From positions 15,315 through 79,314 of the forward strand of contig JBIOUY010000082.1 of the NCBI GenBank assembly GCA_044867445.1: DNA of 64,000 nucleotides, in the 5' to 3' direction. The DNA comes from Gemmatimonadales bacterium. GTDB taxonomy: Bacteria > Gemmatimonadota > Gemmatimonadetes > Gemmatimonadales > GWC2-71-9. Below are positions 3,634 to 63,184 of this stretch, one piece after another; position 1 is the first letter of the stretch, and each line of letters opens with the position of its first letter. A program made the position numbers and the translations under genes. The notes below the pieces were generated by a model, which saw nothing but the letters and a program-made list of their open reading frames with translations, was not told where the DNA came from and ran no database searches.

Positions 3634-3719
3634 CGCCGCCCGCTTCGCCGGACCCGCGGGCGGCTTTCTACGTTTGACGGTTTGCCGGACTCTGGTCCTC
3701 GTCGGGCTGTTCGCTTTCC

Positions 3720-48135: not shown

Positions 48136-48952
48136 CCCCTGGCATCATAGAGGCGAGCGTCGCGGCCTGAGCGCCGCGATTCTCGTCCTCCTCGGTGGAC
48201 TGCTGGCCCCGGTGCAGCTTCGCTATCGGGCGACGCAGCTGGAATGCGCCCGGTTTCACGAGGTGATCGCGGGCAAGGTACAGACCCAGACCGCCGGCCG
48301 ACGGCGGGTTGAGACGCTGGGACGCGACGGCATCTGGACGCTTCGTGCCACCGAGGGCGGAGAGGAGATCGCGTTGGAAGGTTGGTATGACTCGCTCAGC
48401 GTTTGGCGGGCGGCGTCGGATGGCAAGTTGACCGGCGATACGGATGGTCTGATCGGCGGTCGATATCGGGCACGCCTGACCCCGACCGGCGCGATCACCA
48501 TCGCATCCCGGCCGTTCATCCCCGACGAGCTGCGCGAGGTGGCGGATCTCTCGGGTGCTCTGGAAGACCTTCTTCCCGAGCTACCGCCACGCGGGCTTGA
48601 GGCCGGCGAGACCTGGAGTGATAGCGCCGGCCTCGAAATTCGCAGACTGCCCGACAGTGCGGCGGCGGGAGGACCGATCGTGCGGCTGCAGGTGCACGAC
48701 CGGCGTGTGGCCGTGAAGGCTCCTCTGGAGGGCGACACCGCATCCGTTGAGCTGCGCCAGACGACCGAGGAAAGTGGCCAGATCGACTGGGCACCCGCGG
48801 TCGGCCTATTGCGCCGGCAGAGAGAGATCGTGGTCGAGACCGCTATTCCGCCGCGCGGTCCGATACGCCAGCCGGTACGCTCCCGGCTGGAGCAGCACAT
48901 CAGCATTACGCGCCTGTCGCCGGCGGCTGCCCCTCGAGCCCGCTGCCAGTAG
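48074..48952 (+). CDS. Hypothetical protein with N-terminal hydrophobic anchor (start uncertain)
   Basis: The ORF begins with a GTG inside the pruA 3' end. LSAAILVLLGGLLAPV looks like a signal anchor. No family recognised. The 3' end overlaps the convergent ABC-2 permease ORF. Confidence 0.4.
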   Translation: MSRKPLPRRRTIDTPSWQKPDPWHHRGERRGLSAAILVLLGGLLAPVQLRYRATQLECARFHEVIAGKVQTQTAGRRRVETLGRDGIWTLRATEGGEEIALEGWYDSLSVWRAASDGKLTGDTDGLIGGRYRARLTPTGAITIASRPFIPDELREVADLSGALEDLLPELPPRGLEAGETWSDSAGLEIRRLPDSAAAGGPIVRLQVHDRRVAVKAPLEGDTASVELRQTTEESGQIDWAPAVGLLRRQREIVVETAIPPRGPIRQPVRSRLEQHISITRLSPAAAPRARCQ

Positions 48953-49715
48953 GTCCTCTTCCGACAAACCGTTGCTCCGGGTCGAAGAGCAACGCGGTGG
49001 CCAGGAATGCAATCCCGCAGGCCGCGAGAAGCGCTCCCGCATCCTCCCAGATCCCGAATTCTCCCTGCTGCCCCATAGCGTGGCGCATGAGATCCACCGC
49101 ATAGGTTACCGGATTCACCCTTGCGACTGCACGCAAGAGCGGCGGCAGGCCGGCGGTGGGATAGAGCGCTCCGCTCAGGAAGAGCAGCGGAAACAGGACG
49201 ACGTTGATGACGCCAGCGAAGTTCTCTACCGAGCGGAGCCGCGCAGCGACCAAGAGCCCCAGAAGACCGCTGGCAGCAGCCGCGAGAACCAGCGCTACGA
49301 TCGCCTGGAGCATCTGGAGGGCGGTCACCCTCAGGATGAGCGGGGCAAATGCCAGCACGACGCCGCCTTGGAAAAACCCGACCAGGGTGGCGGCCAACGC
49401 TCTGCCGCTGAGCACCGCCGGGACCCCGGCTGGGCTCGCGAGCATGAGTCGCAGCATGCCGAACTCACGGTCGTAGACTGTGGAGATTGCGGTAAGCATT
49501 CCACCGAACAGGGCAGCCATCACGACCATTCCAGGAAAGACGAACTCCTGGTAGGAGAGCCCGCCCTCCAGCCGCGCGATCGCGTTGTATCCAGTGCCGA
49601 CAAGAAGCAGCCATAGGAATGGTCGGGCCAATCCGCCTAGCAGCCGACTGGTCTGCCGAGTGGTCCGCGCCAGGTCGCGGGCAACGATGCCGTGGACCGC
49701 GCTCAGGGCGCCCAT
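48906..49715 (-). CDS. ABC-2 type transporter permease (NodJ/DrrB-like)
   Basis: 269 aa with six TM segments. Typical ABC-2 pattern (...YDREFGMLRLMLASP...NPVTYAVDLMR). The start overlaps the ATPase stop by 13 nt. Confidence 0.8.
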   Translation of the reverse strand: MGALSAVHGIVARDLARTTRQTSRLLGGLARPFLWLLLVGTGYNAIARLEGGLSYQEFVFPGMVVMAALFGGMLTAISTVYDREFGMLRLMLASPAGVPAVLSGRALAATLVGFFQGGVVLAFAPLILRVTALQMLQAIVALVLAAAASGLLGLLVAARLRSVENFAGVINVVLFPLLFLSGALYPTAGLPPLLRAVARVNPVTYAVDLMRHAMGQQGEFGIWEDAGALLAACGIAFLATALLFDPEQRFVGRGPTGSGLEGQPPATGA

Positions 49716-50638
49716 TGGGTACCGTCCTGAGTTCGAGCGAAATAGGCGTCTTCGAGGGTGGCAGGGCGCAGGCTCAAACGGTTTACCCCGGGTGCGGCGC
49801 CGGCCAACTCCACGATTGGCTCACGCTCACCGGTCAGGCCCACCCGGAATCCGCGCTCGGTCTGCAGAATCGTCTTGACGGCGCCCAGTCCGCGCAGCGC
49901 TCGAACCAGGCGCTGTGCTCCCGGGCCTTCGATCTCTGCGACTTCCTCGCCAAATGCCGACCGCAGCAGGTCCGGCGAGTCGTCGCCCACCACACAGCCT
50001 CGGGCCAGGAGAATGACCCGATCCGCCGGCTCGGCCTCGGTGAGATAGTGAGTCGAGAACAGGATCGTAGTGCCGGCCGCGCGACGCGCCTCTGTGAGAA
50101 TGGACCAGATGCGCTCCCGATGCTCCGGGTCGAGCCCGACAGTGGGCTCATCCAGAATCAGGAGATCCGGTTGATGCAGTGTTGCCCGGGCGATATCCAC
50201 CAACCGGCGCCACCCGCCCGAGAGCTGCCGAGCCGGTTGATGAGTCCGCTCGGCCAGGCCAAGACGCTGAATGGCGTCACCCACCGCGGCCCGAGCGAGC
50301 CTGCCGCCCAAACCGGCGAGCCGCGCTGCAAAGAGGAGATTCTCCTCTACCGTGAGAAGCCCGTCTACGGTGGTTTCCTGGAATACCAGGCCCAACCGGC
50401 GACGGACGGCCGTCCGCTCGCGGGTAACATCGTGGCCGAAGATTCTTGCTGTGCCGCGGGTGGGAGAGAGCAGCGTAGCCAGAAGGAGCATTGTGGTGGT
50501 CTTGCCCGCCCCATTGGGACCGAGCAGTCCCATGACAGCGCCGGCGGGAAGGACCAGGGTCAGTGCGTCGAGCGCCCGGAGGCCGCCGTAGTCGCGCCCC
50601 AGTCCTTCGGCCGCGATTGCCGGCGGAGGCTCGCTCAC
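49703..50638 (-). CDS. ABC transporter ATP-binding protein (DrrA/NodI-like exporter ATPase)
   Basis: Walker A GPNGAGKTT, signature LSGGWRR, Walker B LLILDEPT. I chose the GTG at 50638 because it forms a GTGA overlap with the pqqE stop. The 362-aa track ORF extends into pqqE. Confidence 0.85.
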   Translation of the reverse strand: MSEPPPAIAAEGLGRDYGGLRALDALTLVLPAGAVMGLLGPNGAGKTTTMLLLATLLSPTRGTARIFGHDVTRERTAVRRRLGLVFQETTVDGLLTVEENLLFAARLAGLGGRLARAAVGDAIQRLGLAERTHQPARQLSGGWRRLVDIARATLHQPDLLILDEPTVGLDPEHRERIWSILTEARRAAGTTILFSTHYLTEAEPADRVILLARGCVVGDDSPDLLRSAFGEEVAEIEGPGAQRLVRALRGLGAVKTILQTERGFRVGLTGEREPIVELAGAAPGVNRLSLRPATLEDAYFARTQDGTQWAP

Positions 50639-51720
50639 ACCCGTTGGGGCTCGAGCACGCGGTAACGGTACTCCGGGAGATTCTCGCGCTCGGCGATGGC
50701 GCTGTCGATCATCCCCCGGTTGGGCGACAAGATGCAGACCGGGTCGGTGTTGGCTGCATCGCCGGTGAGCGCAAACGCCTGACAGCGACAACCACCAAAG
50801 TCGATCGCCTTTCGGGGACAGGTCCGGCAGGGCTCCTTCATCCAGCTATCGCCCCGGAACGCCTGGAACGCCGGCGACTCCTGCCAGATCCACTGGAGCG
50901 AGCGATCGCGAACGTTGTCAAACGAGAGGGTAGTAATCTGGGTGGCTCCGTGACAGGGGAGCACTCGGCCATCGGGGGAGACAACCAGATAGTTCTTGCC
51001 CCAGCCGCCGTAGCACGGCTTGGGATACTGCTCGAAGTAGTCGGGGAGCACGAAGATGATCTGCATCTTACCACGATACCGCTGCATGGCCTCATTGGCG
51101 ACGGCATGGGCCCGCTGTACCTGCTCCCGGGTGGGCATGAGCCACGCGCGGTTCTCCAGGCCCCAGCCGTAGTACTGAGTATTGGCCAACTCGAGCCGGT
51201 CGGCGCCGAGGCTCCCCGCCAGGTCGATGATCTCCTCGATGCGATCGAGGTTGGTGCGATGCAGCACGACGTTGATGGAGAAGGCGAAGCCCAGCTCCTT
51301 GGCGATAGCGGCCGCGGCGCGCTTCTGCTTAACCGAGCTCACTCCGGCGATGCGTTCTGCTACTTCGGAGTCGGCATCCTGGATGGAGATCTGGATGTGC
51401 TCCATGCCGATCTCACGCAAGCGCTCAGCGCGAGTCCGAGTCAGGCCCAGACCCGACGTGACCAGAGTGGTATAGAGCCCCAGGCCATGAGCGTGGGCAG
51501 CGAGCTCCTCGAGATCCTTGCGGACTAGCGGCTCCCCGCCTGAGAGGCCCAGCTGAAGCACGCCCAGCTCGCGTGCCTGAGTGAACACCCGCTTCCAGTC
51601 CCCAGTGGCGAGCTCGCCTTCGGCCCGTACCATCTCCAACGGGTTGGAGCAGTAGGGGCAGTGCAGCGGGCATCGGTGAGTGATCTCCGCCAGCAAGGTC
51701 GTCGGGTGCTCAGACGTCAC
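50635..51720 (-). CDS. pqqE: PQQ biosynthesis radical SAM protein PqqE
   Basis: CPLHCPYCSN radical SAM cluster, the SPASM-type Cys-rich C-terminus (CRTCPRKAIDFGGCRCQA), and overall PqqE-like sequence. Confidence 0.9.
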   Translation of the reverse strand: MTSEHPTTLLAEITHRCPLHCPYCSNPLEMVRAEGELATGDWKRVFTQARELGVLQLGLSGGEPLVRKDLEELAAHAHGLGLYTTLVTSGLGLTRTRAERLREIGMEHIQISIQDADSEVAERIAGVSSVKQKRAAAAIAKELGFAFSINVVLHRTNLDRIEEIIDLAGSLGADRLELANTQYYGWGLENRAWLMPTREQVQRAHAVANEAMQRYRGKMQIIFVLPDYFEQYPKPCYGGWGKNYLVVSPDGRVLPCHGATQITTLSFDNVRDRSLQWIWQESPAFQAFRGDSWMKEPCRTCPRKAIDFGGCRCQAFALTGDAANTDPVCILSPNRGMIDSAIAERENLPEYRYRVLEPQRV

Positions 51721-51979
51721 GAATCAACTCCTTCTCCGCCAGGTCGGCCAAATACTGGGCCACGTCGGCGGCCACATCGGTCTGGTATCGCTCTCCCAGG
51801 ATTGCGGCGATCTCGCCCACGGTGCGTTGGCCGTCCACCAACTCCAGGATGGCCGCGCCGGTATCGTTGAGGAGCACCGCTCCCTCGGGATAGAGCAACA
51901 CCGGGCGCTGCCGAACCGAGTCGAAGCCCAGACGCGCCAGACGCCAAAGCGTGGGTTTCGCGTTCGGGTCGAGCGTCAC
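51710..51979 (-). CDS. pqqD: PQQ biosynthesis peptide chaperone PqqD
   Basis: VLLYPEGAVLLNDTGAAILELVDGQRTVGEI...YLADLAEKELI. The GTG at 51979 forms a GTGA overlap with the pqqC stop. The 3' end overlaps the pqqE start by 11 nt. Confidence 0.8.
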   Translation of the reverse strand: MTLDPNAKPTLWRLARLGFDSVRQRPVLLYPEGAVLLNDTGAAILELVDGQRTVGEIAAILGERYQTDVAADVAQYLADLAEKELIRDV

Positions 51980-52734
51980 TGGTACGCGTGGTGAATCGTA
52001 TCGATCATCGCCCATAACATATCCAGCTTGAAGGCGAGCGCCTCGAACGCCCGCATCTGAGTCTCCACTGTCGTGCAGTGCTGCTGCACGATTGCCAGCC
52101 CCTGGCGCACATCCCGTGGTGCCTGCACCAACCGGCTCCGGAAGTAGTCCAGTCCTTCCGGTGGAATCCAGGGGTAGTGCTTGGGAAATGCCTCGATCCG
52201 CTGCTGGTGGATCTTGGGAGCGAAGAGCTCCGTCAGTGACGAGGCAACCGCCTCCACCCAGGGCCTGGTCTTACAGAAGGTGACGTAGGATTCGCAGATG
52301 AACCGCACTGCCGGCAGCACGTGGCGCTCATCCTCCATTTCCTCTCGCGGCACGCCCAGAGCGACGCCGAGGCGAATCCACAGCTCGATTCCGCCAGTGC
52401 CGGGCGCGGTACCGTCATGGTCCACGATCCGCTGGATCCATTCCCGCCGGACCTCGGGATCGGGACAGTTGGAGAGAATGGCGGCGTCCTTCCGGGGAAC
52501 GACCCGTTGGTACGCCAGCCGATTGGCCACCCATCCCTGAAACTGACGCTGGCTCAGCCGCCCCTCGTACATCAGCCGATGAAACGGATGCTCCACGTAG
52601 TACGACCCGCTGAACGAGCGAAGCGCCTCTTCCAACCCCGTCGCCGTGAGCGGGCGCTCCAACCGGGGAAACGGCGGTTTCGGCGGCGTGGCCAACTGCG
52701 AGGGAGCGAGCGTTGCGGTCATAGCGTCAACCAT
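51976..52734 (-). CDS. pqqC: Pyrroloquinoline-quinone synthase PqqC
   Basis: YYVEHPFHRLMYEGRLSQRQFQGWVANRLAYQ...DHDG...ELWIRLG...FRSRL is a typical PqqC. Confidence 0.9.
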   Translation of the reverse strand: MVDAMTATLAPSQLATPPKPPFPRLERPLTATGLEEALRSFSGSYYVEHPFHRLMYEGRLSQRQFQGWVANRLAYQRVVPRKDAAILSNCPDPEVRREWIQRIVDHDGTAPGTGGIELWIRLGVALGVPREEMEDERHVLPAVRFICESYVTFCKTRPWVEAVASSLTELFAPKIHQQRIEAFPKHYPWIPPEGLDYFRSRLVQAPRDVRQGLAIVQQHCTTVETQMRAFEALAFKLDMLWAMIDTIHHAYQ

Positions 52735-52767
52735 AAAGGACTGGAGTCCAGGACGCAGCAGTCGGCG

Positions 52768-53676
52768 TCACAGGGTGAACCGCGTGCCATCGGCGCCCAC
52801 CTTCATCCCGAGGCGCTCGACAGTGGCGCGCTCCGGCGAGTCCTCGATGAGGATAGGGTTGGTGTTGTTGATGTGGGTATAGACCCGGTCTCGGGCGGGG
52901 AGGCTGGCCAGGCGCTCCAGGCTTCCATCCGGCCCCGAAATGGGCAGATGATCCATCTGCCGAGCGGTTCTCTCCCCAATGCCCAGCGCAATGAGCTCGT
53001 CATCGCTCCAGAACGTACCATCGAACAGCACCAAATCGGCTTCTTCCAAGCGCGTGACCACGTCCCCTTCCAGGGCACCGCAACCGGGAATGAAAGCACA
53101 GACCCCATCGGTGGTCCGGTCTCGGATGCTGAGCCCAATCGTGTGGCCCGGCAGCTCCTCGCTCACGAATCGTGGCGGACCGGCCGGCACTGCAAACGCA
53201 GAGAGCTCCAGCCCACTGTCGCCACCGTCCCGATAGCAGAGGGTCAGGGTCCCCGGGAGCGGCAACTCGGTCACCTTCACTTCGGCGAATGCCTGAGTGA
53301 CCGGCAGGATCCTCGAGTCCTGTTCCAGGGCTTTCCGGACGGCATGAGTGGCACATAGCTGCAAATGCCGGCCCTCCCGCAGCAGCACGATCCCCAACGT
53401 GTGGTCCAGCTCAGCATCGGTCACGGCGATCCCCTCGATGGGCACGTGGCGCATTCCCTCAGGCGCTCGCGCCGAGAGCCAAGACAACTGCCGATGCACA
53501 TCCGGGGAAGCGTTGAGGAGGAACCACCGCTCGCCGTCGACGCTGATCGCGGCTGAGGACTGGGTCCTCGGGATGGCTCGGCGGGGGTCTGCGCGCGCGA
53601 TCCGGCAGGACGGGCACCAGCAGTTCCACTGGGGGAACCCGCCTCCTGCCGCTGTACCTAAGAGAACTACCTGCAC
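52768..53676 (-). CDS. pqqB: PQQ biosynthesis protein PqqB (metallo-beta-lactamase fold)
   Basis: VVLLGTAAGGGFPQWNCWCPSC...TQSSAAISVDGERWFLLNASPD...THINNTNP. GTG start. Confidence 0.9.
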   Translation of the reverse strand: MQVVLLGTAAGGGFPQWNCWCPSCRIARADPRRAIPRTQSSAAISVDGERWFLLNASPDVHRQLSWLSARAPEGMRHVPIEGIAVTDAELDHTLGIVLLREGRHLQLCATHAVRKALEQDSRILPVTQAFAEVKVTELPLPGTLTLCYRDGGDSGLELSAFAVPAGPPRFVSEELPGHTIGLSIRDRTTDGVCAFIPGCGALEGDVVTRLEEADLVLFDGTFWSDDELIALGIGERTARQMDHLPISGPDGSLERLASLPARDRVYTHINNTNPILIEDSPERATVERLGMKVGADGTRFTL

Positions 53677-53687
53677 CCTAAAACACT

Positions 53688-53713
53688 GAGGGGCCCGCTT
53701 TCGCGAGCCCCTC
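53688..53713 (-). terminator. Hairpin between pqqA and pqqB (attenuator or partial terminator)
   Basis: The minus strand reads GAGGGGC-t-CGC-GAAA-GCG-g-GCCCCTC followed by AGTGTTTTAGG and then the pqqB GTG. That is a 7+3 bp stem with a GAAA tetraloop and a short U tract. Confidence 0.5.
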
Positions 53714-53740
53714 GAGTTAGTTGCTCGTCCTTAAAGCGTC

Positions 53741-53815
53741 GCGACGTAGGCGGTCACTTCCATGGTGACGGCCACGACCTCGGCCTCGGGCTTCGTCCAC
53801 TTCATAAGTCTAGCC
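53741..53815 (-). CDS. pqqA: PQQ precursor peptide PqqA (24 aa; absent from the ORF track)
   Basis: The minus strand reads ATG AAG TGG ACG AAG CCC GAG GCC GAG GTC GTG GCC GTC ACC ATG GAA GTG ACC GCC TAC GTC GCG ACG CTT TAA. This translates to MKWTKPEAEVVAVTMEVTAYVATL. It carries the conserved W-x-K-P and the E-x-x-x-Y cross-link pair. GGGAGG lies 9 nt upstream. Confidence 0.85.
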
Positions 53816-53859
53816 TCCCGGGATTGAGTGGTGGGCCGACTCGGCCCTGATTCACACGA

Positions 53860-53875
53860 TGGGTGAGATCACCCA
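53860..53875. promoter_or_regulatory. 16-bp palindrome TGGGTGA-GA-TCACCCA (site C), in the pqqA 5' UTR
   Basis: Perfect inverted half-sites read directly. It lies between the predicted sigma-54 promoter and the pqqA start codon. Confidence 0.6.
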
Positions 53876-53911
53876 GCCGGATCGCTGTAAGACCCGACAA
53901 CGCCCTCCATC

Positions 53912-53928
53912 ATGCAGGGGCCGTGCCG
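53912..53928 (-). promoter_or_regulatory. Sigma-54 (-24/-12) promoter candidate for pqqA
   Basis: The minus strand reads TTCGGCACGGCCCCTGCAT, i.e. GGCACG-N4-CTGCA, against the consensus TGGCACG-N4-TTGCW. The GG (53927/53926) and GC (53915/53914) have correct GG-N10-GC spacing. It lies about 100 nt upstream of the pqqA ATG. Confidence 0.6.
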
Positions 53929-53968
53929 AACATGAGACAATCCAGTATCATCATCATAAGTAATTGCC

Positions 53969-53981
53969 AATCAATAAGTTC
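53969..53981 (+). promoter_or_regulatory. AT-rich IHF-like site between the UAS and the -24/-12 promoter
   Basis: AATCAATAAGTTC against the IHF core WATCAA-N4-TTR shows one mismatch. It is embedded in the most AT-rich stretch of the window (about 53940..53995). Confidence 0.3.
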
Positions 53982-54017
53982 GAAGATACTCGCGGGAATG
54001 GCCTGGTCTTCGTGGGA

Positions 54018-54051
54018 TGGGTGATCTCACCCAAGTGGGTCATATCACCCA
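54018..54051. promoter_or_regulatory. Two adjacent copies of the same 16-bp palindrome (sites A and B), candidate enhancer (UAS)
   Basis: Site A is TGGGTGATCTCACCCA (54018..54033). Site B is TGGGTCATATCACCCA (54036..54051), with one half-site mismatch. Their centres lie roughly 100 and 115 bp upstream of the -24 GG. Confidence 0.6.
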
Positions 54052-54058
54052 GCGAAGC

Positions 54059-55477
54059 TCACGCCTGGATGCCGTACTTCTTCAGCCGATAGCGAAGCGT
54101 GTCACGCGAGATCCCGAGCCGCTGGGCCGCCCGGGTCTGGTTGCCCTCCGACTCCTGCAGCGCCCGCTCGATCATGATGCGTTCCCATTGCTCGAGATCG
54201 GTGCCGGGAGGAGGGAAAGGGGTACCGGTGGGTGCCTTGGGGTAACCCGCGGCGCCGTCACGGGCGGATGGGGCTGCTTCCAAGGCGGCCGAAGCTTGGG
54301 GGATGTCGAGCGCGAGGTGCTCCAGGTCGAGGCTTGGCCCTCTGCTCCAGAGCACCGCTCGTTCAATGACGTGGCTCAACTCGCGCACGTTGCCGGGCCA
54401 GGGATACGCTAACAGTGATTGGCGGGCCTGCGCATCGATCCGGCGGACGTCGCGGCCGTATTTGGAGCTGAATCGGGCCAGAAACAGCTCGGCGAGCTTG
54501 AGCACGTCCTCCCCCCGCTCCCGCAATGGAGGGAGCCGAAGGAGAATGACGGCGAGCCTGAAATAGAGATCCCGGCGAAACCGCTCCCGCTGAGCCGCGC
54601 GCTCGAGGTCTCGATTGGTAGCAGCCAGAATCCGCACGTCGATCCGCCGATCGCGAAGACCGCCCACTCGCCGGGTAGTGCGGTCCTCCACCGCCTTCAG
54701 GAGCTTGCCCTGGAGCGAAAGCTCCAGGTCACCTACCTCATCCAGGAATAGGAACCCGCCCTCCGCCGCCTCGAACAGTCCGAGCTTGGATTCCTTGGCA
54801 TCGGTGAAGGCCCCCCGCTCGTAACCGAAGAGTTCGGCCTCCATGAGGGTGGCCGGGAGGGCAGTACAGTTCACCTCGATAAACGGCTTGCTGGCCCGAT
54901 GGCTCGCGGCGTGAATGCTTCGCGCGACTAATCCCTTGCCGGTCCCGGTCTCGCCGGTGATCAGCACCGGGGGCGTCTCCGGCAGGGCCGCGATCTGCCG
55001 AATCTGCTCCAGGACGGCGCGCATCGGGGGTGACTCCCCGATGATACCCGTGATCGGAGCGCCACCCGCGGCCCGCTGACGGTAATAAGAGAGCTCCTGT
55101 TTGAGCTGCGAGGTCTCGCGGGCGCGGTCGGCGAGCAGTCGCAGCTCTTCCAGATCAACCGGCTTCTTCAGGTAATCGAACGCGCCCAGCTTCACCGCCT
55201 CGACCGCACCCTCGATGGTTCCGAACGCGGTCATGACGATCACCGGAATGCTGGGATCAATCTCCCGGATCCGTCGCAGCAGGTCGATGCCGGTGAGGGT
55301 GCCGGGGAGCCGGACATCGGTAAACACCACGTCGGGACTGATCCGGCCCAGGAGCTCGAGCGCTTGATCGACGTCGGTGGCCACCTCGGTCTCGTAGCCA
55401 TACTCCGCCAGGAAGGCCTTCATCGCCCGCGCGAGAGTCCGTTCGTCCTCGACCAGCAAGATGGTAGCGCCGCTCAT
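54059..55477 (-). CDS. NtrC-family sigma-54-dependent response regulator (REC-AAA+-HTH)
   Basis: The receiver shows ILLVEDE...FTDVRLPG. The AAA+ domain shows GETGTGKG, GAFTDA, FLFLDEVG. The C-terminal Fis-type HTH is NQTRAAQRLGISRDTLRYRLKKYG. The ATG at 55477 overlaps the kinase stop (ATGA). Confidence 0.9.
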   Translation of the reverse strand: MSGATILLVEDERTLARAMKAFLAEYGYETEVATDVDQALELLGRISPDVVFTDVRLPGTLTGIDLLRRIREIDPSIPVIVMTAFGTIEGAVEAVKLGAFDYLKKPVDLEELRLLADRARETSQLKQELSYYRQRAAGGAPITGIIGESPPMRAVLEQIRQIAALPETPPVLITGETGTGKGLVARSIHAASHRASKPFIEVNCTALPATLMEAELFGYERGAFTDAKESKLGLFEAAEGGFLFLDEVGDLELSLQGKLLKAVEDRTTRRVGGLRDRRIDVRILAATNRDLERAAQRERFRRDLYFRLAVILLRLPPLRERGEDVLKLAELFLARFSSKYGRDVRRIDAQARQSLLAYPWPGNVRELSHVIERAVLWSRGPSLDLEHLALDIPQASAALEAAPSARDGAAGYPKAPTGTPFPPPGTDLEQWERIMIERALQESEGNQTRAAQRLGISRDTLRYRLKKYGIQA

Positions 55478-56955
55478 AGCGCCGCTCCGGCGGCCGGGAG
55501 CCGGACCCTGACGGTGGTGCCCTCGGCTACCCGGCTCTCGATTTCCAGTCGTCCGCCGTTTTGCTCGATGTAGCGCTTGGCGATGGCCAGCCCCAGTCCA
55601 GTGCCCTCTGCCCGGGTGGTGAAGAAGGGCTCGCACACCGAGGCGATCGCCTGCGCCGGAATCCCCCCGCCGGTGTCGTTGACAGCGACGGTCACTTCCC
55701 CGGGTCCGGAGGCGCCGTTCTCAGCATGCGCCTCTATCGAGAGCTTGCCGCCTTGGGACATGGCATCCAGGGCATTCGACACTACTTCCACCAGCGCCTG
55801 CTCCAATTGCACGGGGTCTACTCGCACCGGGGGAAGATCCGGGGGAACGCTGACCCGAAGCTCCACGCCCCGCTCCCGAATCGGCGCCGCGAATGTCGGG
55901 AGCATCTCGTCGATCAGGTGCGCCACACTCTCCGGCATGGGATGAAATGGTGCCGGCCGGCTGAAGCTGAGAAGGTGATTGATGCGCCGATCGAGCCGGT
56001 CGACCTCCCCGACGATGGCGTCGAGGTGCTCCCGGGCAGAGGGAGATTCCGGATGCCGCCGGACCAGCTGGGCCGCGGCTCGCAGGCTGGCGAGTGGGTT
56101 GCGCAGACCGTGGGCCACGGCTGCCGACATCTCCCCGATCGAGGCCAGCTTCTCGGACTGGACCAGCTGGGCTTGAGTCCGCTCGAGCTGCGCGATATTC
56201 GCTTTCAGATTCTCGGTCATCCGGCCAAAGGCGCGCGCCAGATCACCGATCTCGTCCTGAGAGGTCGCCTTCACCGGATGGTCCAGGTCGCCGGAACCCA
56301 CCACCGCCATCGCCTGGGTGAGCTCCTGAATCGGGCGGGCGAGGCCCCGCGCGATGAGCCCGGAGACCAGGAGTCCCGCCGCCAACGCAATGAGCATGAT
56401 GCCCAGGAGCACGCGGCCTTCCGAGCTCAGAATTTCCTCCAGTCGGGCGTAGGCCCCTTTCACGCTCGACTCCCGGGCGCGGCGATAGATCTCGCGATTC
56501 ATCTGAGTGAGGAGTGGGAGCAGGCGGGCTTTCAACTCGCGCTGAGCCATACGATAGGCGACTTCGCGTTGCCCGGCGTCATACAAGGCGAACACACTGT
56601 CCGAGACCGATACGATCTGCTGCTGAATCCGCGCGACGCCGTTAGCCAACTCCATTTCGTCGGGGCGGAGCTCCGCCCGCCAACGCTGCTGCCAGTAGTC
56701 CACCACCTCGCCGGTCAGACGAAATTCTTTCCGGGCATCGGGGTCCAGGCCGCTCAGGTAGCGCCAGATCACCTCGCTCTGATTGAACATGGCGGTCTCG
56801 AGCTCCGCATAGGTGCGGGTTCGGGCCATGCTCTCACCCAACGCCTGCAGCGCCCGGTGCTCGAGCGCGTTGCTGCGGATGGCCTCGGCGCCGACCAGCA
56901 GCGCCGGGAGGGCCATCAAGGAGAAGCCGAGCAGGAGCTTGCGCTGGAAGGTCAC
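55474..56955 (-). CDS. Sensor histidine kinase (2 TM, HAMP, HisKA, HATPase_c)
   Basis: H-box EMSAAVAHGLRNPLASL, N-box VVSNALDAM, G-boxes NDTGGGIP and GTGLGLAIAK. The GTG at 56955 forms a GTGA overlap with the upstream EBP stop. Confidence 0.85.
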   Translation of the reverse strand: MTFQRKLLLGFSLMALPALLVGAEAIRSNALEHRALQALGESMARTRTYAELETAMFNQSEVIWRYLSGLDPDARKEFRLTGEVVDYWQQRWRAELRPDEMELANGVARIQQQIVSVSDSVFALYDAGQREVAYRMAQRELKARLLPLLTQMNREIYRRARESSVKGAYARLEEILSSEGRVLLGIMLIALAAGLLVSGLIARGLARPIQELTQAMAVVGSGDLDHPVKATSQDEIGDLARAFGRMTENLKANIAQLERTQAQLVQSEKLASIGEMSAAVAHGLRNPLASLRAAAQLVRRHPESPSAREHLDAIVGEVDRLDRRINHLLSFSRPAPFHPMPESVAHLIDEMLPTFAAPIRERGVELRVSVPPDLPPVRVDPVQLEQALVEVVSNALDAMSQGGKLSIEAHAENGASGPGEVTVAVNDTGGGIPAQAIASVCEPFFTTRAEGTGLGLAIAKRYIEQNGGRLEIESRVAEGTTVRVRLPAAGAAL

Positions 56956-58292
56956 GAAAGGTCCGGGCCGGCACTTCCCAGCCCGGCTTCGCGCCACCAC
57001 CGGTAGAACGTCGCCCGGCCGATGCCGAGCGCGCGGGCCGCGGCAGTGCGATTGCCTCCATGGGAAGACAGCGCGCGAAGCAGAGCGGTTCGCCGGTCCT
57101 CTTTTGCCGGTGCGTAGGCTGGGTGGGAGATCGTGGCTCCTTGCAGGAGGGTCTCGACCGCGAGGTGGCTCAGCTCGATGGTGGGAATCATATCAGGCGA
57201 ACTGGAGGAGACCCTTGCCGAGGCCTGGCGAAGCACAACCTCCAGTTGCCGTACATTGCCGGGCCAGTCACTGGCCTGAAGCGCGGCCAAGGCCTGGTCG
57301 GTCAGCGTGGTGCCCGGAGGGGCGTACCGGGAGAGGAAGTGGTCGGCCAGGAGCGGAATGTCCCCGCGGCGGTCGCGCAGAGCCGGAATCGCGATCCGGA
57401 CCACCCGGAGCCGGCGGTACAGGTCCTGGCGGAACCGGCCCTGGGCCACCTCCTGCTCCAGCGGCGAGGCGGAGGCGGCGATGACGCGAACATCAACCAT
57501 TCGGGATCGGGGATCGCCCCGGCGTTCGATTTCCCCGCCTTGGAGCAGATGCAGCAATCTGGCCTGAACCGCCAAGGGGATCCGGTTGACCGCCTCGAGA
57601 AAGAGGGTGCCGGAATGAGCCAGCTCGACGCGTCCGATCCGGGTACCGGACGTTGATGTGGTACCCCGCACCTCGCCGAAGAGCTCGGCTTCAAGGGCGG
57701 TCGGCGGTACAGCAGCGCAGTCTACCGCAATGAGTGGCCGCTCGGCGCGCTGACTCCGGGCATGAAGCAGCTGCGCCACGACCTCTTTGCCGACGCCAGA
57801 CTCGCCCTCGATAACAACCGGAGCATCACTCGGCGCGACCGCGTCGATGAGCTCGTACATCGCCTCCATGGCGGGATCCGAGCCCACCAGGCTGCCGTAG
57901 CCGGGTCGTCCGCCGGGGCCGGTCCCCTGCCGGCAGAGTACTCCGGCGTCACGAATGACCACCAGCACGCCAACTGCTCCCACCGCGTCGGTCCAAGGGC
58001 GCGCGCTCACCTCGGCGGTACGGAGGTTCCCCTGAGCACAGAGCACGTCGGCGAGGGCGCGGATGGGTCGGCCGGTCGAGCGGACGTCCCAGAGCAGATC
58101 GGCCACGGCGGGCTCGAGCCGGAGGACCTCCCGCCAGGGGAGCGAACGCCCTTCGGCTGGGGCCAGCCCGGTCACCCGGCTGGCTGCGGGATTATGGAGG
58201 AGCACTCGGCCCGAGGCGTCGATCCCGATCGCCCCGTCGTCAGTAGAGGCGAGCCAGGCCTCGAACATGCCGGCGTCGACCGTGTCGGTCAT
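56952..58292 (-). CDS. PAS-domain enhancer-binding-protein homologue with degenerate GAFTGA and Walker B
   Basis: N-terminal PAS domain (IGIDASGRVLLHNPAASRVTG). The AAA+ domain has an intact Walker A (GESGVGKE). GTTSTS stands where GAFTGA is expected, and LFLEAV where LFLDEI is expected. C-terminal HTH: NRTAAARALGIGRATFYRW. The Met at 58292 is preferred. Confidence 0.8.
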   Translation of the reverse strand: MTDTVDAGMFEAWLASTDDGAIGIDASGRVLLHNPAASRVTGLAPAEGRSLPWREVLRLEPAVADLLWDVRSTGRPIRALADVLCAQGNLRTAEVSARPWTDAVGAVGVLVVIRDAGVLCRQGTGPGGRPGYGSLVGSDPAMEAMYELIDAVAPSDAPVVIEGESGVGKEVVAQLLHARSQRAERPLIAVDCAAVPPTALEAELFGEVRGTTSTSGTRIGRVELAHSGTLFLEAVNRIPLAVQARLLHLLQGGEIERRGDPRSRMVDVRVIAASASPLEQEVAQGRFRQDLYRRLRVVRIAIPALRDRRGDIPLLADHFLSRYAPPGTTLTDQALAALQASDWPGNVRQLEVVLRQASARVSSSSPDMIPTIELSHLAVETLLQGATISHPAYAPAKEDRRTALLRALSSHGGNRTAAARALGIGRATFYRWWREAGLGSAGPDLS

Positions 58293-58331: not shown

Positions 58332-58495
58332 AGGCGGAAAGGCGGTAGGGCGGTAGGGCGGTAAGGCACTAAGGCGGTAGAGAAGGCGAAAAACGGGGCG
58401 GGCGCGGCGGAAAAAGGCAATCTCCATCCTTCCGCTTTTTCTTCCGCCCTCTTTCCGCCTTCTGATCCGCCTTTAACGCCGCCTAATGCGCCGCC
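58332..58495. repeat. 8-nt tandem repeats (GGCGGTAG-type) plus a pyrimidine-rich inverted counterpart
   Basis: Left arm: GGCGGAAA GGCGGTAG GGCGGTAG GGCGGTAA GGCACTAA GGCGGTAG AGAAGGCG. Right arm: CCTTCCGC TTTTTCTT CCGCCCTC TTTCCGCC TTCTGATC CGCCTTTA ACGCCGCC. The right arm runs into the last codons of the MFS gene. Arm complementarity is looser than in the other elements. Confidence 0.6.
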
Positions 58496-60072
58496 CCCGC
58501 CCCCGCCCGAGAACGCCCGTGACGGAAGAAGAGCAGCAGCGGTAGGGCCAGGGTGAAGGTGATGCCCATGGTCAGAAACACCTTTTCGAAAGCGACCATG
58601 GAGGCCTGCTGGCGGAGCACGCCCTCGAGCGCCCCGTATGCCCGGTTCTGCGCCTCGGCCAGGGTGCCGCCTTCGCTCAGCATGCGGCGGGTCACCTGCT
58701 CGAGCCAGACCCGGGTGGATGGCTCCGCCATCGAAAGGTGGGGAACGAGCGCCTGCCTGCCTTGCTCGGTGAAGCGGGTGAGCAGGGTGGCGGTGATGGC
58801 GATGCCGAAGCTGCCACCGAGCTGACGAGCCAGGTTGAAGAGGCCAGTGCCTTGGGCCATCTGGTCAGGCCGGAGGTCAGCCACGGACGCACCGGTGAGG
58901 GGCACAAAGATGAACCCCAGGCCGACGCCGCGCAGAATCATGGGCCAGAAGAGGTCGTGCATCCCGATCTGCAGGGTGAAGTGGTAGTGCAGCCACATCG
59001 ACCACAGGAACAGCAGGACGCCGATCGGAATCAGGACCCGAGCATCGAAGCGCTGCCCCATGCGGCCCATCAGGGCCATGGTAAAGGCGCTGGCGATCGC
59101 TCCGGGCAGGATCACGCGCCCGGTGTCCCACGCGGCGTATCCCAGGAGGTTCTGCAAGAACACCGGCAGGGCGAACACGCTGGCGTAGAGGGCGAAGCCC
59201 AGCACACCCGCGAAGGTCACCCCGGCCGCGAGCTGCCGGTTCTTGAGGATCCGCAAGTTCACGATGGGGTTGGGCGTCCGCAGCTCGTGCCATACGAACA
59301 GCACCAGGCCGATACCAGCGAGAATGGACTCCACCACAATCTCACGGGCCTCGAACCAATCTTTGGACTCACCCCGTTCGAGCAGGATCTGAAGCGATCC
59401 AATCCCGAGGATCAGCAGACCCAGACCGACCCAGTCTACTCCGGAGCTGCGACTGACAGCATGCTCCGGCTCTGGCACCGAACGCCAGGTCATGATCCCG
59501 GCGAGGATGCCCAACGGCAGATTGATGTAGAAGATCCAGGGCCAGGAGTAGTTGTCGGTGATCCATCCGCCGAGCGTCGGGCCCAGCGTGGGTCCTACCA
59601 TGACGCCCATTCCGAAGATCGCCATCGCCTTGCCCCGTTCCCGGAGGGGGAAGACGTCGAACAGGATGGCCTGGGCGGTACTGATCAGCGCTCCGCCGCC
59701 GATGCCCTGAATCACTCGCCAGAGGACCAGGCTCTCGAGCGAGCGAGCGCTGCCGCAGAAGAAGGAGGCCAGGGTGAAGAGCGCGATGGATGCGGTGTAG
59801 TAGTTCCTTCGCCCAAACCGCTCCGACAACCAGCTGGTGAGTGGAAGCACGATCACGTTGGCCACGATATAGCCCGTGCTCACCCAGGCGATCTCGTCCA
59901 GCGTCGCGCCGAGATTTCCCATCATGTGCGGGATCGCGACGTTGACGATGCTGGTGTCCACCAGCTCGAGCACGCTCGCCAGCGTAACCGCGAAGGCGAT
60001 CAGGTAGCGTGAGCGATAGACCTGCTCCCGGCTGAGCGGCTGCGGCCGGATGGGAAGTGCCAGAGTAGCCAT
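58483..60072 (-). CDS. emrB: MFS drug efflux transporter, DHA2 (EmrB/QacA) family, 14 TM
   Basis: LDTSIVNVAIPHM, GWITDNYSWPWIFYINLP, 529 aa. Confidence 0.9.
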   Translation of the reverse strand: MATLALPIRPQPLSREQVYRSRYLIAFAVTLASVLELVDTSIVNVAIPHMMGNLGATLDEIAWVSTGYIVANVIVLPLTSWLSERFGRRNYYTASIALFTLASFFCGSARSLESLVLWRVIQGIGGGALISTAQAILFDVFPLRERGKAMAIFGMGVMVGPTLGPTLGGWITDNYSWPWIFYINLPLGILAGIMTWRSVPEPEHAVSRSSGVDWVGLGLLILGIGSLQILLERGESKDWFEAREIVVESILAGIGLVLFVWHELRTPNPIVNLRILKNRQLAAGVTFAGVLGFALYASVFALPVFLQNLLGYAAWDTGRVILPGAIASAFTMALMGRMGQRFDARVLIPIGVLLFLWSMWLHYHFTLQIGMHDLFWPMILRGVGLGFIFVPLTGASVADLRPDQMAQGTGLFNLARQLGGSFGIAITATLLTRFTEQGRQALVPHLSMAEPSTRVWLEQVTRRMLSEGGTLAEAQNRAYGALEGVLRQQASMVAFEKVFLTMGITFTLALPLLLFFRHGRSRAGAGAAH

Positions 60073-60084
60073 GACGACCTCGAC

Positions 60085-61176
60085 TCACCCGGTCGTGATG
60101 GTCACTTCGACCGACATTCCCGGCCGCAGCGGAGCGGATGGGTCGGTGTTCGGGTCCACCGCGATCCGTACCGGCACCCGCTGAACGACTTTGGTGAAGT
60201 TGCCGGTCGCGTTATCCGGCGGCAGCAAGGCGAACCGCGCGCCTGTGGCCGGGCTGAGACTCTCCACCTTGCCGTGGAAGACCTGCCCCGGATAGGCATC
60301 CACGGTAAACTCCACCCAGTCGCCGACCGCGACGTGAGCGAGCTGGGTCTCCTTGAGGTTGGCGGTCACCCAAACCTTCTTCTCCGGTACGATCGACAGC
60401 AGGTTCTGCCCCACCTGCACCAGCGCACCGGGCTCGGCGCTGCGCTTGGCGATCAAGCCATCGGTCGGCGCCACGATGACAGCGTAGCTCAGCTGGAGCC
60501 GGGCATTGTCTACGGCCGCCTGGGCCGCGGCCAGACGGGCGTCGGCTCCCCGCACCGCGGCCCCGGAAGCGGACACCTGGCTCCCGGCAGCGGCGGCCTG
60601 CTTGCGAGCGGCCTGCAGGTTTGCCCCCGCGGCGTCGTAGGCCGCCTGGGCCTCATCGAGCTGTTGGGCTGAAATGATCTTGGAGGCGGCGAGGCCGCGG
60701 TAGCGCCCGAGGTCCGATGCCGCCTTGCGGTAGCTGGCTTCAGCCGCCGCAATGGCTGCTTCGGCCGATGCGGCCTGAGCCCGCGTGGCATCGAGCTGGG
60801 CCGCCGCCTGCCCCGCGCGACCCCGCGACGTCACCGCGCTTTGGGCGTCACGTAAGTCCGCCTCCGCCTGCAGCAGCCGCACCTCGAAGTCTCGCCGATC
60901 GAGGACGACCAGCGTGTCTCCCGCCTTCACGTGCTGGTTGTCGTCCACCAACACTCGCTCGATGAAGCCGGAGACCCTGGGAGAGATGGTCGTGATATGG
61001 CCATCGACCTGTGCGTTGCCGGTGGTCACGTGATGTCGGCTGTAGATGTAGCGACGAACTCCCCACACGGCCAACGTCAGCACGAGCAGGCCGAGAATGA
61101 GAAGAGGGAGGCGCTTGGTCCAGCTCTTGGCCTGGGGTGCTGCAGTTGCCGGAACATCCAGTGCGATGTCGGTCAT
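60085..61176 (-). CDS. emrA: HlyD/EmrA-type membrane fusion protein
   Basis: N-terminal TM segment, then TTGNAQVDGHITTISPRVSGFI, a long Ala/Gln coiled coil, and the C-terminal FTKVVQRVPVRI. Confidence 0.9.
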   Translation of the reverse strand: MTDIALDVPATAAPQAKSWTKRLPLLILGLLVLTLAVWGVRRYIYSRHHVTTGNAQVDGHITTISPRVSGFIERVLVDDNQHVKAGDTLVVLDRRDFEVRLLQAEADLRDAQSAVTSRGRAGQAAAQLDATRAQAASAEAAIAAAEASYRKAASDLGRYRGLAASKIISAQQLDEAQAAYDAAGANLQAARKQAAAAGSQVSASGAAVRGADARLAAAQAAVDNARLQLSYAVIVAPTDGLIAKRSAEPGALVQVGQNLLSIVPEKKVWVTANLKETQLAHVAVGDWVEFTVDAYPGQVFHGKVESLSPATGARFALLPPDNATGNFTKVVQRVPVRIAVDPNTDPSAPLRPGMSVEVTITTG

Positions 61177-61201
61177 TTCAGTCTCTTTGCGTCGATGGCG
61201 T

Positions 61202-62512
61202 TCACTGCAATTGGTCGATCACACCGAGCGCCCGATAGGCGCTCACGCGTGCGGTACCATAGTTGACTCGGGCCTGAATCAAGGCGTCGCGGGCCGAGAT
61301 CACGGACCCTTGGGCGTTCGTAGTCTCCACGCTCCCGGCCACACCCGCACGGAAGCGTTCCTGGGCCAGACTCAGCTCCTGCTCGGAGAGTCGAAGGCGC
61401 TGGCCGGCGATCGCGACCTGCTGCTGCGCGGAGGCGAGGTCGAGCACCGCCTGCCGAGCCTCAGTCTCGACTTGATTGACCAGATCGTGCTCCCGGAGCT
61501 GCTGCACCTCGAGCTTGACCGCCTGCTCTGTCACTCGGCTCTGCCGGCGGAAGCCGTCCAGGATCGGCACACTCAACAGCAGCTGCACGTTATAGCTGTC
61601 ATCGAGCGCACCGGTCCTCTGTCCGCTCTCCTGGTAGGCGCCGTTGACCGATAAGCTGGGGAGGTACTCGTATCGGATGGCGCTTAGGTTGCGCCGAGCG
61701 GCGGTGGTACGCGCGCGCTCGGCTGCGAGCTCGGCCCGGTGCTGCCGGGCGAAGTCCGCGGCCGAATCGGGCCGGAGCGGAAGGTTCATTGGGCCCAGCC
61801 CGAGGGAGTCGGCGAGCTCGATTCGGGTGCCGGACGGAAGATCCAAGGTCCGCAGCAAATCGAGCCGGGCGCGATCAACTCCGTTGCGGGCGACCTCCAA
61901 TTGCGTCTGCACCGACGCGAAGCTCACCTCGCTCCGGGTCGCGTCGATCGCGGGGCTCACGCCGGCGGCAACCAGCTGGCGGGCCTGGGCCAGCAGCTCG
62001 GCAGCAATGGTGCTGTCCGCCTCGCGAGCCCGCACGGTCTCCTGGGCGCTCAACAGCTGGAGGTAGGCAAGCCCGGCGGTGGCTCCGGCGACTTCTCCCG
62101 ATGCCTGCGCGTCGAGGCCCGACGCTATCGCGGTGTCGCGCCCGGCACGCAACCGCGCAATCAGGCTTGCGTCGAAGACCGTTTGAGTCGCTCGCAGCTG
62201 AAATCGCCACACACTGAAGGGGTCGGTCACCCCGCTCGCGATCGGAATCCCGAACTCATCCAGATTGACCGTCTGCGGGGTGACGGACGCGTTCCCGCTG
62301 ATGTTCGGCAGCAGATCGGCTCGGCGCTCCCCTACCCGAGCGTTGGCCGCACGCACGTTGAGCCGAGCCACGGCGGCATCCACGCCCTGCCGGCGACCCA
62401 GCGAGATGGCTTGAATCAAGCTCAGGGGTCCGGACGGAAGAATCGGCTGCTGCGCGAAAGCGGGTGCCGGAGAGACACTCAGGAGAACGAGCAGGAACAG
62501 AGCGCAACGCAT
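61202..62512 (-). CDS. TolC-family outer membrane efflux protein
   Basis: Signal peptide, two repeats of the OEP pattern, 436 aa. Confidence 0.85.
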   Translation of the reverse strand: MRCALFLLVLLSVSPAPAFAQQPILPSGPLSLIQAISLGRRQGVDAAVARLNVRAANARVGERRADLLPNISGNASVTPQTVNLDEFGIPIASGVTDPFSVWRFQLRATQTVFDASLIARLRAGRDTAIASGLDAQASGEVAGATAGLAYLQLLSAQETVRAREADSTIAAELLAQARQLVAAGVSPAIDATRSEVSFASVQTQLEVARNGVDRARLDLLRTLDLPSGTRIELADSLGLGPMNLPLRPDSAADFARQHRAELAAERARTTAARRNLSAIRYEYLPSLSVNGAYQESGQRTGALDDSYNVQLLLSVPILDGFRRQSRVTEQAVKLEVQQLREHDLVNQVETEARQAVLDLASAQQQVAIAGQRLRLSEQELSLAQERFRAGVAGSVETTNAQGSVISARDALIQARVNYGTARVSAYRALGVIDQLQ

Positions 62513-62524
62513 TGGTCGATGGCC

Positions 62525-63184
62525 TCAATTCCGGTCCGTGGGAGGCTCAAGCACCCCGTGGAGGTAGAGATCGATCATGCCCTGGAGCGCCTGCTCATCG
62601 GTCAGCGCGGCAGGGTCGAGACGATGGAAGAAGCACTGCACCTGGGCGGTGTGAACCAGCAGCGAGGGGAGTCCCCGGGCGGCGAAACCGCGCGAGGCGG
62701 CGCGAAATTCCCCCGTGGCTACCCCACGCTCGAGCACATCGGCGACGATGCGACGGGCCCGGAGGATGACCTCATCGAAGTAGAACTGCGCCAACTCGGG
62801 GAAACTCCCCAGCTCGGCCTGGACCAATCGAGTGATCCGAGCCATCCGCTCGTTGCGGAGCCCACGGTAAAGCCGGGTGATCAACTCGATCAGCAGATCA
62901 CGGCAACTCCCCTGGTGGGTGCGGACCAACTCCTCACATTCAGCCAGCGCGGCCACGACCTTGGCGCGCACCATCTCGCGGAAGAGCGATTCCTTGGAAT
63001 CGAAGTAGAGATAGACCGTGCCTTTACTGACGCCGGCGAGCCGGGCGACATCGTCCAGCTTGGTGCGAGCAAATCCACATTCACCGAACACGGTTTGCGC
63101 CGCGTCGAGGATCTCCTCTGGTCGGGCGTCGGGGCGGCGTTGCCAGCGAGGCGAGGTGAGGTCTGAGGGAGTGCGATCCACCAA
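62525..63184 (-). CDS. TetR family transcriptional regulator
   Basis: The N-terminal HTH is FGECGFARTKLDDVARLAGVSKGTVYLYFDSKESLF. Confidence 0.9.
   Translation of the reverse strand: MVDRTPSDLTSPRWQRRPDARPEEILDAAQTVFGECGFARTKLDDVARLAGVSKGTVYLYFDSKESLFREMVRAKVVAALAECEELVRTHQGSCRDLLIELITRLYRGLRNERMARITRLVQAELGSFPELAQFYFDEVILRARRIVADVLERGVATGEFRAASRGFAARGLPSLLVHTAQVQCFFHRLDPAALTDEQALQGMIDLYLHGVLEPPTDRN

Follow-up and report, generated by a model that had tools for sequence, protein, structure and literature searches.

In the NtrB/NtrC, AtoSC, ZraSR, and DctBD systems, a kinase is paired with an EBP (bacterial enhancer-binding protein) composed of a receiver domain, an AAA+ domain, and a Fis-type helix-turn-helix (HTH) domain, and at the NtrC-dependent promoter glnAp2 tandem palindromes lie upstream of a sigma-54 promoter with a GG-N10-GC (-24/-12) element. 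Sites downstream of a sigma-54 start have also been described: the FlrC sites at flaA and flgK of Vibrio cholerae are enhancers, and the ftr sites of FlbD at fliF of Caulobacter repress. Here we describe a locus of this kind in a 64-kb stretch of DNA (hereafter the window) from a Gemmatimonadales soil bacterium. In this locus, all genes of which are on the minus strand, a gap bearing palindromes separates the gene of an EBP with a response regulator (RR) receiver domain, RR-EBP, from pqqA, the first gene of an operon for the biosynthesis of pyrroloquinoline quinone (PQQ). Comparison with related loci makes it probable that the pqqA operon is transcribed from a sigma-54 promoter and that the adjoining RR-EBP activates it through the palindromes. 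The mechanism would be that of a textbook bacterial enhancer, and what is new is the pqq target, the lineage, the recognition motif, and the placement of sites on both flanks of the promoter.

The locus is like all four of the above systems in its kinase and its receiver-AAA+-Fis-type HTH regulator, and is further like NtrB/NtrC-glnAp2 in having tandem palindromes approximately 100-130 bp upstream of GG-N10-GC, with apparent helix-face spacing and a possible bend site. Unlike NtrC-type systems, it has a regulator with a GAFTDA loop that scores below the cut-offs of the named equivalogs, an operon for a cofactor of the ribosomally synthesized and post-translationally modified peptide (RiPP) type as the target, and an extra site at about +35. 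It shares with the FlrC and FlbD systems a site downstream of the sigma-54 start; however, two upstream sites are present here as well, so that the promoter is flanked, and the downstream site is found in one clade of two.

Regulation of PQQ biosynthesis is understood in only a few Proteobacteria, with LuxR- or OmpR-type activators. In Methylorubrum, it involves MxbDM and other sigma-70-type control. The pqq operon of Pseudomonas has been attributed to the LuxR-type regulator AgmR/ErbR (PMC12997753). The present locus resembles these systems in its pqqA-first operon, in a hairpin after pqqA, and in the association with a PedB/PedC-type ABC-2 transporter, and, as in these systems, one would expect its induction to be tied to the activity of periplasmic quinoproteins. 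It differs from them in that sigma-54 and an AAA+ EBP would take the place of the LuxR- and OmpR-type activators, that the regulator genes belong to the same conserved string of genes as pqqA, and that the transporter is coupled to pqqE. The nearest published hint is an insect-symbiosis island of Burkholderia/Caballeronia (PMC9088363), in which PQQ genes occur together with those of a histidine kinase and a 'sigma-54-dependent Fis family regulator'. Although an EBP and PQQ genes thus stand together as in our locus, the island lies in another phylum, holds only a fragment of pqqA, and came with no claim about a promoter or regulation. We found no report of sigma-54/RpoN control of pqq in the open-access literature searched, and two broad sigma-54 regulon surveys, to whose analysis the Gemmatimonadota did not belong, make no mention of pqq. 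This agrees with a preliminary description of the window, which had remarked that sigma-54/EBP control of PQQ biosynthesis is not an established paradigm.

The RR-EBP gene (54059-55477, minus strand, 472 aa) ends with a TGA codon at 54061-54059, and a gap of 253 bp separates it from the ATG of pqqA at 53805. In the preliminary description, pqqA had been placed with its start at 53815, which was wrong (the coding sequence is 53805-53731), and the gap had been called the most AT-rich stretch of the window; it is the second, a stretch at about 63.2 kb being richer in AT. A correctly oriented sigma-54 type -24/-12 element, CGGCACGgcccCTGCA (53928-53913, minus strand), is located in the gap 109 nt upstream of the ATG. 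Its GG (53927-53926) and GC (53915-53914) have exactly the GG-N10-GC spacing that had been noticed before, and it departs from a YTGGCACG-N4-TTGCW-like consensus at 2 of the 12 specified positions. With the usual 11-13 nt from the -12 GC to +1, the predicted transcription start is at about 53902 ± 2 (53900-53904, minus strand). A scan of the RR-pqqA intergenic region for a sigma-70 consensus gave no match. Another sequence, TGGCAAGCGTGTTGCA (45561-45576), comes closest of all in the window to the sigma-54 consensus, with one mismatch; it is within the gene of an ABC ATPase and has probably arisen by chance.

Related loci were collected in two ways. A protein-guided scan with one genome per species yielded 19 Gemmatimonadales loci with RR-EBP orthologues of 68-80% identity, the remaining 61 loci being those of unrelated EBPs (39-46% identity). 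Seventeen of the 19 extend past the 3' end of the RR-EBP gene, and in 16 of these pqqA is found 170-360 bp downstream of it. A metagenome scan for an exact tandem pair of TGGGTG-N4-CACCCA, the inner form of the palindrome described below, yielded 20 contigs, 12 of which carry at least part of the RR-EBP/pqq locus. The pooled set contains 26 distinct pqqA upstream regions. The genes of the kinase and RR-EBP, pqqABCDE, and the genes of an ABC ATPase and of an ABC-2 permease form the conserved unit; what lies upstream of the kinase varies by locus. The core GGCAC-N6-TGC is invariant at the same aligned position in all 26 regions, although the spacer around it is otherwise unalignable and aligns only through the conserved elements. 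By chance, approximately 0.008 copies are expected per 250-bp region (about 4 per 128 kb of searched strand), and in each 13-kb locus this is the sole copy in promoter position. Conservation of the promoter and the palindromes upstream of orthologous pqqA genes was one of the checks put forward in the preliminary description, and both are kept, the core in 26 of 26 regions and the outermost palindrome in 25 of 26.

The three palindromes share the motif TGGGTGA-N2-TCACCCA and were found where the preliminary description had placed them: site 1 (TGGGTGATATGACCCA in the minus-strand reading, 54036-54051), which has one mismatch to TGGGTGANNTCACCCA, and the perfect copies site 2 (TGGGTGAGATCACCCA, 54018-54033) and site 3 (TGGGTGATCTCACCCA, 53860-53875). 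To our knowledge, this motif is the recognition sequence of no characterized EBP. Allowing up to two mismatches, TGGGTGANNTCACCCA matches the window at these three places and nowhere else, as had been noted by eye, against 0.18 matches expected, and none of 100 shuffled sequences reached three. In each orthologous locus the palindromes are confined to the RR-pqqA intergenic region, and none was found in 666 kb of non-orthologous EBP loci. A dispersed repeat is thus ruled out in the data examined. Counted from the first G of the -24 GG, the centers of sites 1 and 2 lie 116.5 and 98.5 bp upstream, 18 bp apart, within the range of approximately 80-150 bp typical of inverted repeats that serve as upstream activating sequences, and equivalents are found in the orthologues. 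In nine loci (L003, L006, L008, L011, L012, L013, L016, L017, and L019), the TGA stop codon of the RR-EBP gene is itself part of the site 1 half-site TGGGTGA, so that the gene and the enhancer are physically interlocked.

The positions of the sites relative to the promoter appear constrained. Site 1 is at the equivalent position in 25 of the 26 loci, the remaining locus having it at -70.5, and its distribution is bimodal, with 14 loci at -114.5 to -119.5, 11 at -128.5 to -131.5, and none between. The two spacing classes, which are about 12 bp apart, both occur in both pqqA clades: clade A, in which PqqA ends in ...AVTMEVTAYVATL, and clade B, in which it ends in ...ELGMEVGAYAGNA. Such bimodality arose in none of 20,000 simulations under a uniform null (0.0004 after collapsing duplicates) and is suggestive of a helical-face constraint, although short of proof. 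Where site 2 is recognizable, it lies 18-19 bp from site 1, and roughly 10 or 11 turns of the helix separate it from the promoter center. Site 3 has its center 59.5 bp downstream of the GG, at about +35 from the predicted start. It is present at +59.5 ± 1 in all 15 clade A loci and absent throughout clade B. This register is constant even though the 7-nt hairpin loop that lies between the site and the promoter varies freely in sequence.

The RR-EBP has the properties expected of an NtrC-family activator. Its domains are, in order, PF00072, PF00158 (E = 1.8e-63), PF25601 (AAA_lid), and PF02954 (HTH_8), and its gene adjoins and overlaps that of a HAMP-HisKA-HATPase kinase (55474-56955, minus strand; Pfam and gene call), the kinase stop overlapping the RR-EBP start. 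Walker A (GETGTGKG) and Walker B (LFLDEV) are intact, and GAFTDA is the sigma-54 contact loop of all 19 orthologues, as it also is of 7 unrelated EBPs among the loci examined. GAFTDA is among the variants expected to stay active according to a study of Desulfovibrio EBPs (PMC4641369). Against the named NCBIfam equivalogs, including AtoC, NtrC, ZraR, LuxO, NtrX, GlrR, and the PEP-CTERM regulator, the protein scored below every cut-off (AtoC, 449.7 bits vs 714; NtrC, 401 vs 559), and among proteins of solved structure it is closest to the Aquifex NtrC1/NtrC4-type activators. The kinase is a membrane protein with a helical periplasmic sensor, to which Pfam gave no match. More than 270 homologues were found, of which those with a named source are all from Gemmatimonadales or Gemmatimonadetes, and some are labeled CHASE3 by one source. 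In the orthologous loci, the kinase/RR-EBP pair always adjoins the palindromes. Together with the invariant core and the palindrome positions across the 26 loci, this adjacency supports the earlier proposal of a sigma-54 pqqA promoter with palindromic enhancers for the neighboring EBP. Autoregulation of the kinase and RR-EBP genes was also considered and is ruled out; neither a palindrome nor a -24/-12 core was found upstream of the kinase in any locus.

Several observations weigh against this proposal. The -12 element reads CTGC and not TTGC. Within the window, the sigma-54 consensus with up to two mismatches has 11 matches against 8.8 expected, and the core GGCAC-N6-TGC has 4 against 3.95 expected, the other three being intragenic; the match is at chance level in the window, and the weight of the -24/-12 element comes from the comparison with relatives. 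The contact loop of the RR-EBP is GAFTDA and not GAFTGA, and no rpoN was seen among the approximately 40 of 53 predicted window genes examined. The spacing of site 1 has its best period at about 12 bp, not 10.5 bp, and, as the loci are related by descent, the spacing statistics overstate independence. In several loci site 2 is degenerate or undetectable, and site 3 is missing from clade B, so that neither is indispensable. The last of these points concerns the AT-rich spacer (53952-53981), a possible bend site. The spacer does contain the IHF-like element that had been described there, AATCAATAAGTTC (plus strand, 53969-53981), a 12/13 match to WATCAANNNNTTR, and a second IHF-core-like match, TGGCAATTACTTA, on the minus strand. 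Across the orthologues, however, the element is weakly supported: about half of them have such matches (up to two mismatches) near -36 and -48, counted from the GG, 7 of 17 have none, and the AT content of the spacer ranges from 0.29 to 0.59.

From the sequence comparison, we infer the sigma-54 dependence, the protein that binds the palindromes, and the roles of site 3 and the hairpins, which would fit together as follows. A periplasmic signal would act on the kinase, which would phosphorylate the RR-EBP. Dimers of the RR-EBP would bind TGGGTGA-N2-TCACCCA through the Fis-type HTH at the two sites approximately 100-117 bp upstream of the -24 element, assemble into an AAA+ ring, and reach the closed complex of Esigma54 by DNA looping, possibly aided by bending of the AT-rich spacer, and the promoter would then be opened by ATP hydrolysis. 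In clade A, site 3 would most likely give a third bound dimer, the three dimers forming one hexamer that straddles the promoter, and, with the regulator unphosphorylated, it might in addition work as a brake. The transcript would begin with a stem-loop followed by pqqA, and most transcripts would probably end at, or be stabilized by, the hairpin after pqqA. The expected outcome is a short pqqA mRNA that is stable and abundant, a part of the transcripts reading through into pqqB-E and the genes of the ABC-2 transporter.

Of these steps, we are least sure of the one that involves site 3. Its clade-specific occurrence in a strict register is compatible with a third enhancer dimer and also with a brake. 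We regard a negative role as a serious, though less likely, alternative. In that case, with the promoter and the upstream sites working as above, unphosphorylated regulator at about +35 would block elongation of transcripts both from the sigma-54 promoter and from read-through out of the kinase/RR-EBP operon, or would form with sites 1 and 2 a repression loop around the promoter. The site is inside the transcribed leader, just past the expected footprint of the open complex, and its distance from site 2 (approximately 158-162 or 169-172 bp, about 15 or 16 helical turns) is compatible with looping. A terminator scan found none between the RR-EBP gene and pqqA, so that read-through would need control, which favors such a brake, and NtrC and FlbD are known repressors when bound at or after the start site. 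However, enhancers downstream of the start can also activate, as the FlrC sites at V. cholerae flaA and flgK and relocated NtrC sites do, and clade B, although it lacks site 3, keeps the rest of the system, so that any braking role would be accessory. We favor the third-dimer role for three reasons: a hexamer consists of three dimers, the spacing to the promoter is strictly kept, and site 3 is on the same helical face as site 2.

It is improbable that the palindromes are operators of another factor, either the PAS-domain protein encoded upstream of the kinase or an unlinked regulator, with the RR-EBP acting from solution or from other sites. The PAS-domain EBP-like protein (56952-58292, minus strand; Pfam) does have a Fis-type HTH and is encoded in the same gene string, but only in the window and in locus L011; the gene is missing at this position in 15 of the 17 loci, which retain the palindromes, and its recognition helix is unlike that of the RR-EBP. 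The 3' end of the RR-EBP gene, on the other hand, is in every case adjoined or overlapped by the palindromes, and a paralogous EBP has the same palindromes after its own stop codon, which together point to the RR-EBP lineage as the binder. The preliminary description had counted two EBP-type genes immediately upstream. Both do adjoin on the same strand, but a sigma-54 contact loop is present in the RR-EBP only: the AAA+ domain of the PAS protein is degenerate, with RGT-TSTSGT where the GAFTGA loop would be and LFLEAV where Walker B would have its DE residues, and its L011 orthologue (approximately 3020-4340) is equally degenerate. Because it lacks these residues and is syntenic in two loci only, the PAS protein is an unlikely activator, and we rule it out as a second one; it is probably an atypical sigma-54-independent regulator outside the circuit.

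The paralogue is encoded on metagenome contig L095 (1-1800), one of the 8 tandem-pair contigs without a link to the RR-EBP/pqq locus. It is 43% identical to the RR-EBP, has a similar HTH and a SAFTDA loop, and its gene ends in the same palindrome pair. About 75-90 bp past the palindromes lies CGGCACGCCAGTTGAA, a GGCAC-N5-TTGAA element, followed by a pilin-like gene whose product has a prepilin-type N-terminus. The motif appears to be used also by this PilR-like relative. On a second contig, L089 (1-1170, a short contig), the palindrome pair reaches into the 3' end of an open reading frame of 283 aa that has no similarity to the locus proteins and looks methyltransferase-like by eye. The pair is followed by CGGCACGCCGGCTGCG, which has a GGCAC-N6-TGC core and points off the contig end; the contig may hold a pqqA locus that has been rearranged or, alternatively, another target of the regulator. 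Six of the 8 contigs instead carry unrelated 18-19-bp tandem direct repeats in lower-GC DNA. Such repeats, with units that contain TGGGTG-N4-CACCCA (e.g., TGGGTGTATTCACCCAAT), are those of L081/L085, L083, L090/L099, L091, and L092. On L090, further copies of TTCACCCA nearby give these repeats an iteron-like look.

That the palindromes act as RNA hairpins, sites 1 and 2 as a 3' structure or terminator of the RR-EBP transcript and site 3 as a leader hairpin, is very unlikely. Any palindrome can fold, and in the centroid fold of the leader site 3 forms a 6-bp hairpin between two others. One of these, which site 3 abuts, is a stem-loop at 53876-53898 (minus strand, about +5 to +27) with arms GTCGGGTC-N7-GATCCGGC (GUCGGGUC-N7-GAUCCGGC). 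In an alignment of 11 leaders, this stem-loop has compensatory changes in 5 of 8 pairs and 91.9% of cells paired, and its loop is constant in length and free in sequence; the covariation indicates that it is constrained as a structure. Site 3, in contrast, has compensatory changes in 0 of 6 pairs and is therefore constrained as sequence and not as pairing. Moreover, the same 12 specified bases occur at three places, two of which are outside the sigma-54 transcript, as predicted for a protein-binding site, and sites 1 and 2 are not followed by a U tract and were negative in the terminator scan. The whole leader folds no better than shuffled sequences (z = -0.44), and the Rfam matches to 53600-54150 at E <= 10 were just three, all irrelevant and sub-threshold, so that the leader belongs to no known RNA family; a riboswitch-like leader, which we also considered, is ruled out by this z value.

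Two further hairpins were found in and behind the leader. A second leader hairpin, GGGCC-N5-GGCCC (53833-53847, minus strand), is restricted to a sub-clade. In clade B the leader is shorter, and a conserved 12-bp palindrome, GTGGTCGACCAC, stands in place of the first hairpin and site 3 (L006, L007, L009, L010, L084, L088, L093, and L097). It looks like a minimal version of the first hairpin, and could be either such a minimal RNA hairpin or a different protein site. After pqqA, a GC-rich terminator-like hairpin with a short U tract (53688-53713, minus strand) is present in all loci examined, with sequences that differ between the two clades. Its probable role is that of an attenuator between pqqA and pqqB or of a 3' stabilizer, giving an excess of pqqA mRNA.

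The least credible explanation, that the -24/-12 match is fortuitous and pqqA is expressed by read-through from the kinase and RR-EBP genes or from an unrecognized sigma-70-type promoter, can draw on the chance-level frequency of the match in the window, on the lack of an intervening terminator, and on the uncharacterized promoter consensus sequences of Gemmatimonadota, but it leaves unexplained a core kept in 26 of 26 regions at a fixed distance from the conserved leader, within a spacer diverged beyond alignment, and its co-occurrence with an EBP gene and enhancer-like palindromes at the canonical distance.

The target of the proposed sigma-54 promoter is a pqqABCDE operon, in which a PqqA with the motif ...EVTAY... 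is followed by PqqB, PqqC, PqqD, and PqqE. The gene pqqA (53731-53805) is preceded by a GGGAGG Shine-Dalgarno sequence (53819-53814) and encodes MKWTKPEAEVVAVTMEVTAYVATL, a peptide of 24 aa with the E-X3-Y motif. It is followed by pqqB (52768-53676; TIGR02108, 351.6 bits vs a cut-off of 245) and, assigned by Pfam, pqqC (51976-52734), pqqD (51710-52015), and pqqE (50635-51720), and then by genes for an ABC ATPase (49703-50638) and an ABC-2 permease (48906-49715), all on the minus strand. The stretch from pqqB to the permease (48906-53676) is presumed to be the operon body. Overlaps of a few to about 40 bases join the PAS/kinase, kinase/RR-EBP, pqqC/D, pqqD/E, pqqE/ABC, and ABC/permease gene pairs. 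The ABC ATPase and ABC-2 permease genes (48906-50638) are translationally coupled to pqqE, and the pair is syntenic in L001-L004, L007, L011, L016, L082, L084, L086, L096, and L100. It gives below-cut-off matches to TIGR03864/TIGR03861, the PedB/PedC-type transporter of a 'PQQ-dependent alcohol dehydrogenase system'. Because it comes without a binding protein, the pair is a candidate PQQ exporter; a different ABC transporter has been put forward as the PQQ exporter elsewhere (PMC7391723). Upstream of the PAS gene are a TolC/HlyD/MFS efflux set (58483-62512, minus strand) and a TetR-family regulator gene (62525-63184, minus strand). A quinoprotein dehydrogenase was not seen among the window genes examined (approximately 40 of 53 predicted). 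In the gap between the MFS and PAS genes (58380-58470), runs of GGCGGAA repeats are followed by CTACCGCC repeats, and the two pair into a long imperfect hairpin (z = -2.4 vs shuffles).

Beyond the sigma-54 reading itself, one may speculate that the kinase and RR-EBP form a dedicated sensor of periplasmic PQQ demand, responding to a quinoprotein substrate, lanthanide or calcium status, or PQQ, and that through a three-dimer enhancer it co-induces PQQ synthesis and the ABC-2 exporter as the route of PQQ to the periplasm. We consider this specific scenario rather unlikely.

PQQ supply limits the periplasmic quinoprotein dehydrogenases that act in glucose, alcohol, and lanthanide-dependent methanol oxidation. 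If sigma-54 and the RR-EBP do control pqqA as proposed, TGGGTGA-N2-TCACCCA would provide a defined DNA motif for an orphan EBP, and a region of approximately 200 bp with three sites would offer a compact system for studying the assembly of an AAA+ ring by dimers that flank a promoter. For PQQ export, the ABC-2 transporter encoded in the same presumed operon is a candidate that can be put to the test. The biosynthesis of a RiPP-type cofactor would join the repertoire of sigma-54, and the locus would provide the first cis-regulatory model for the Gemmatimonadales, an abundant and barely studied lineage of soil bacteria.

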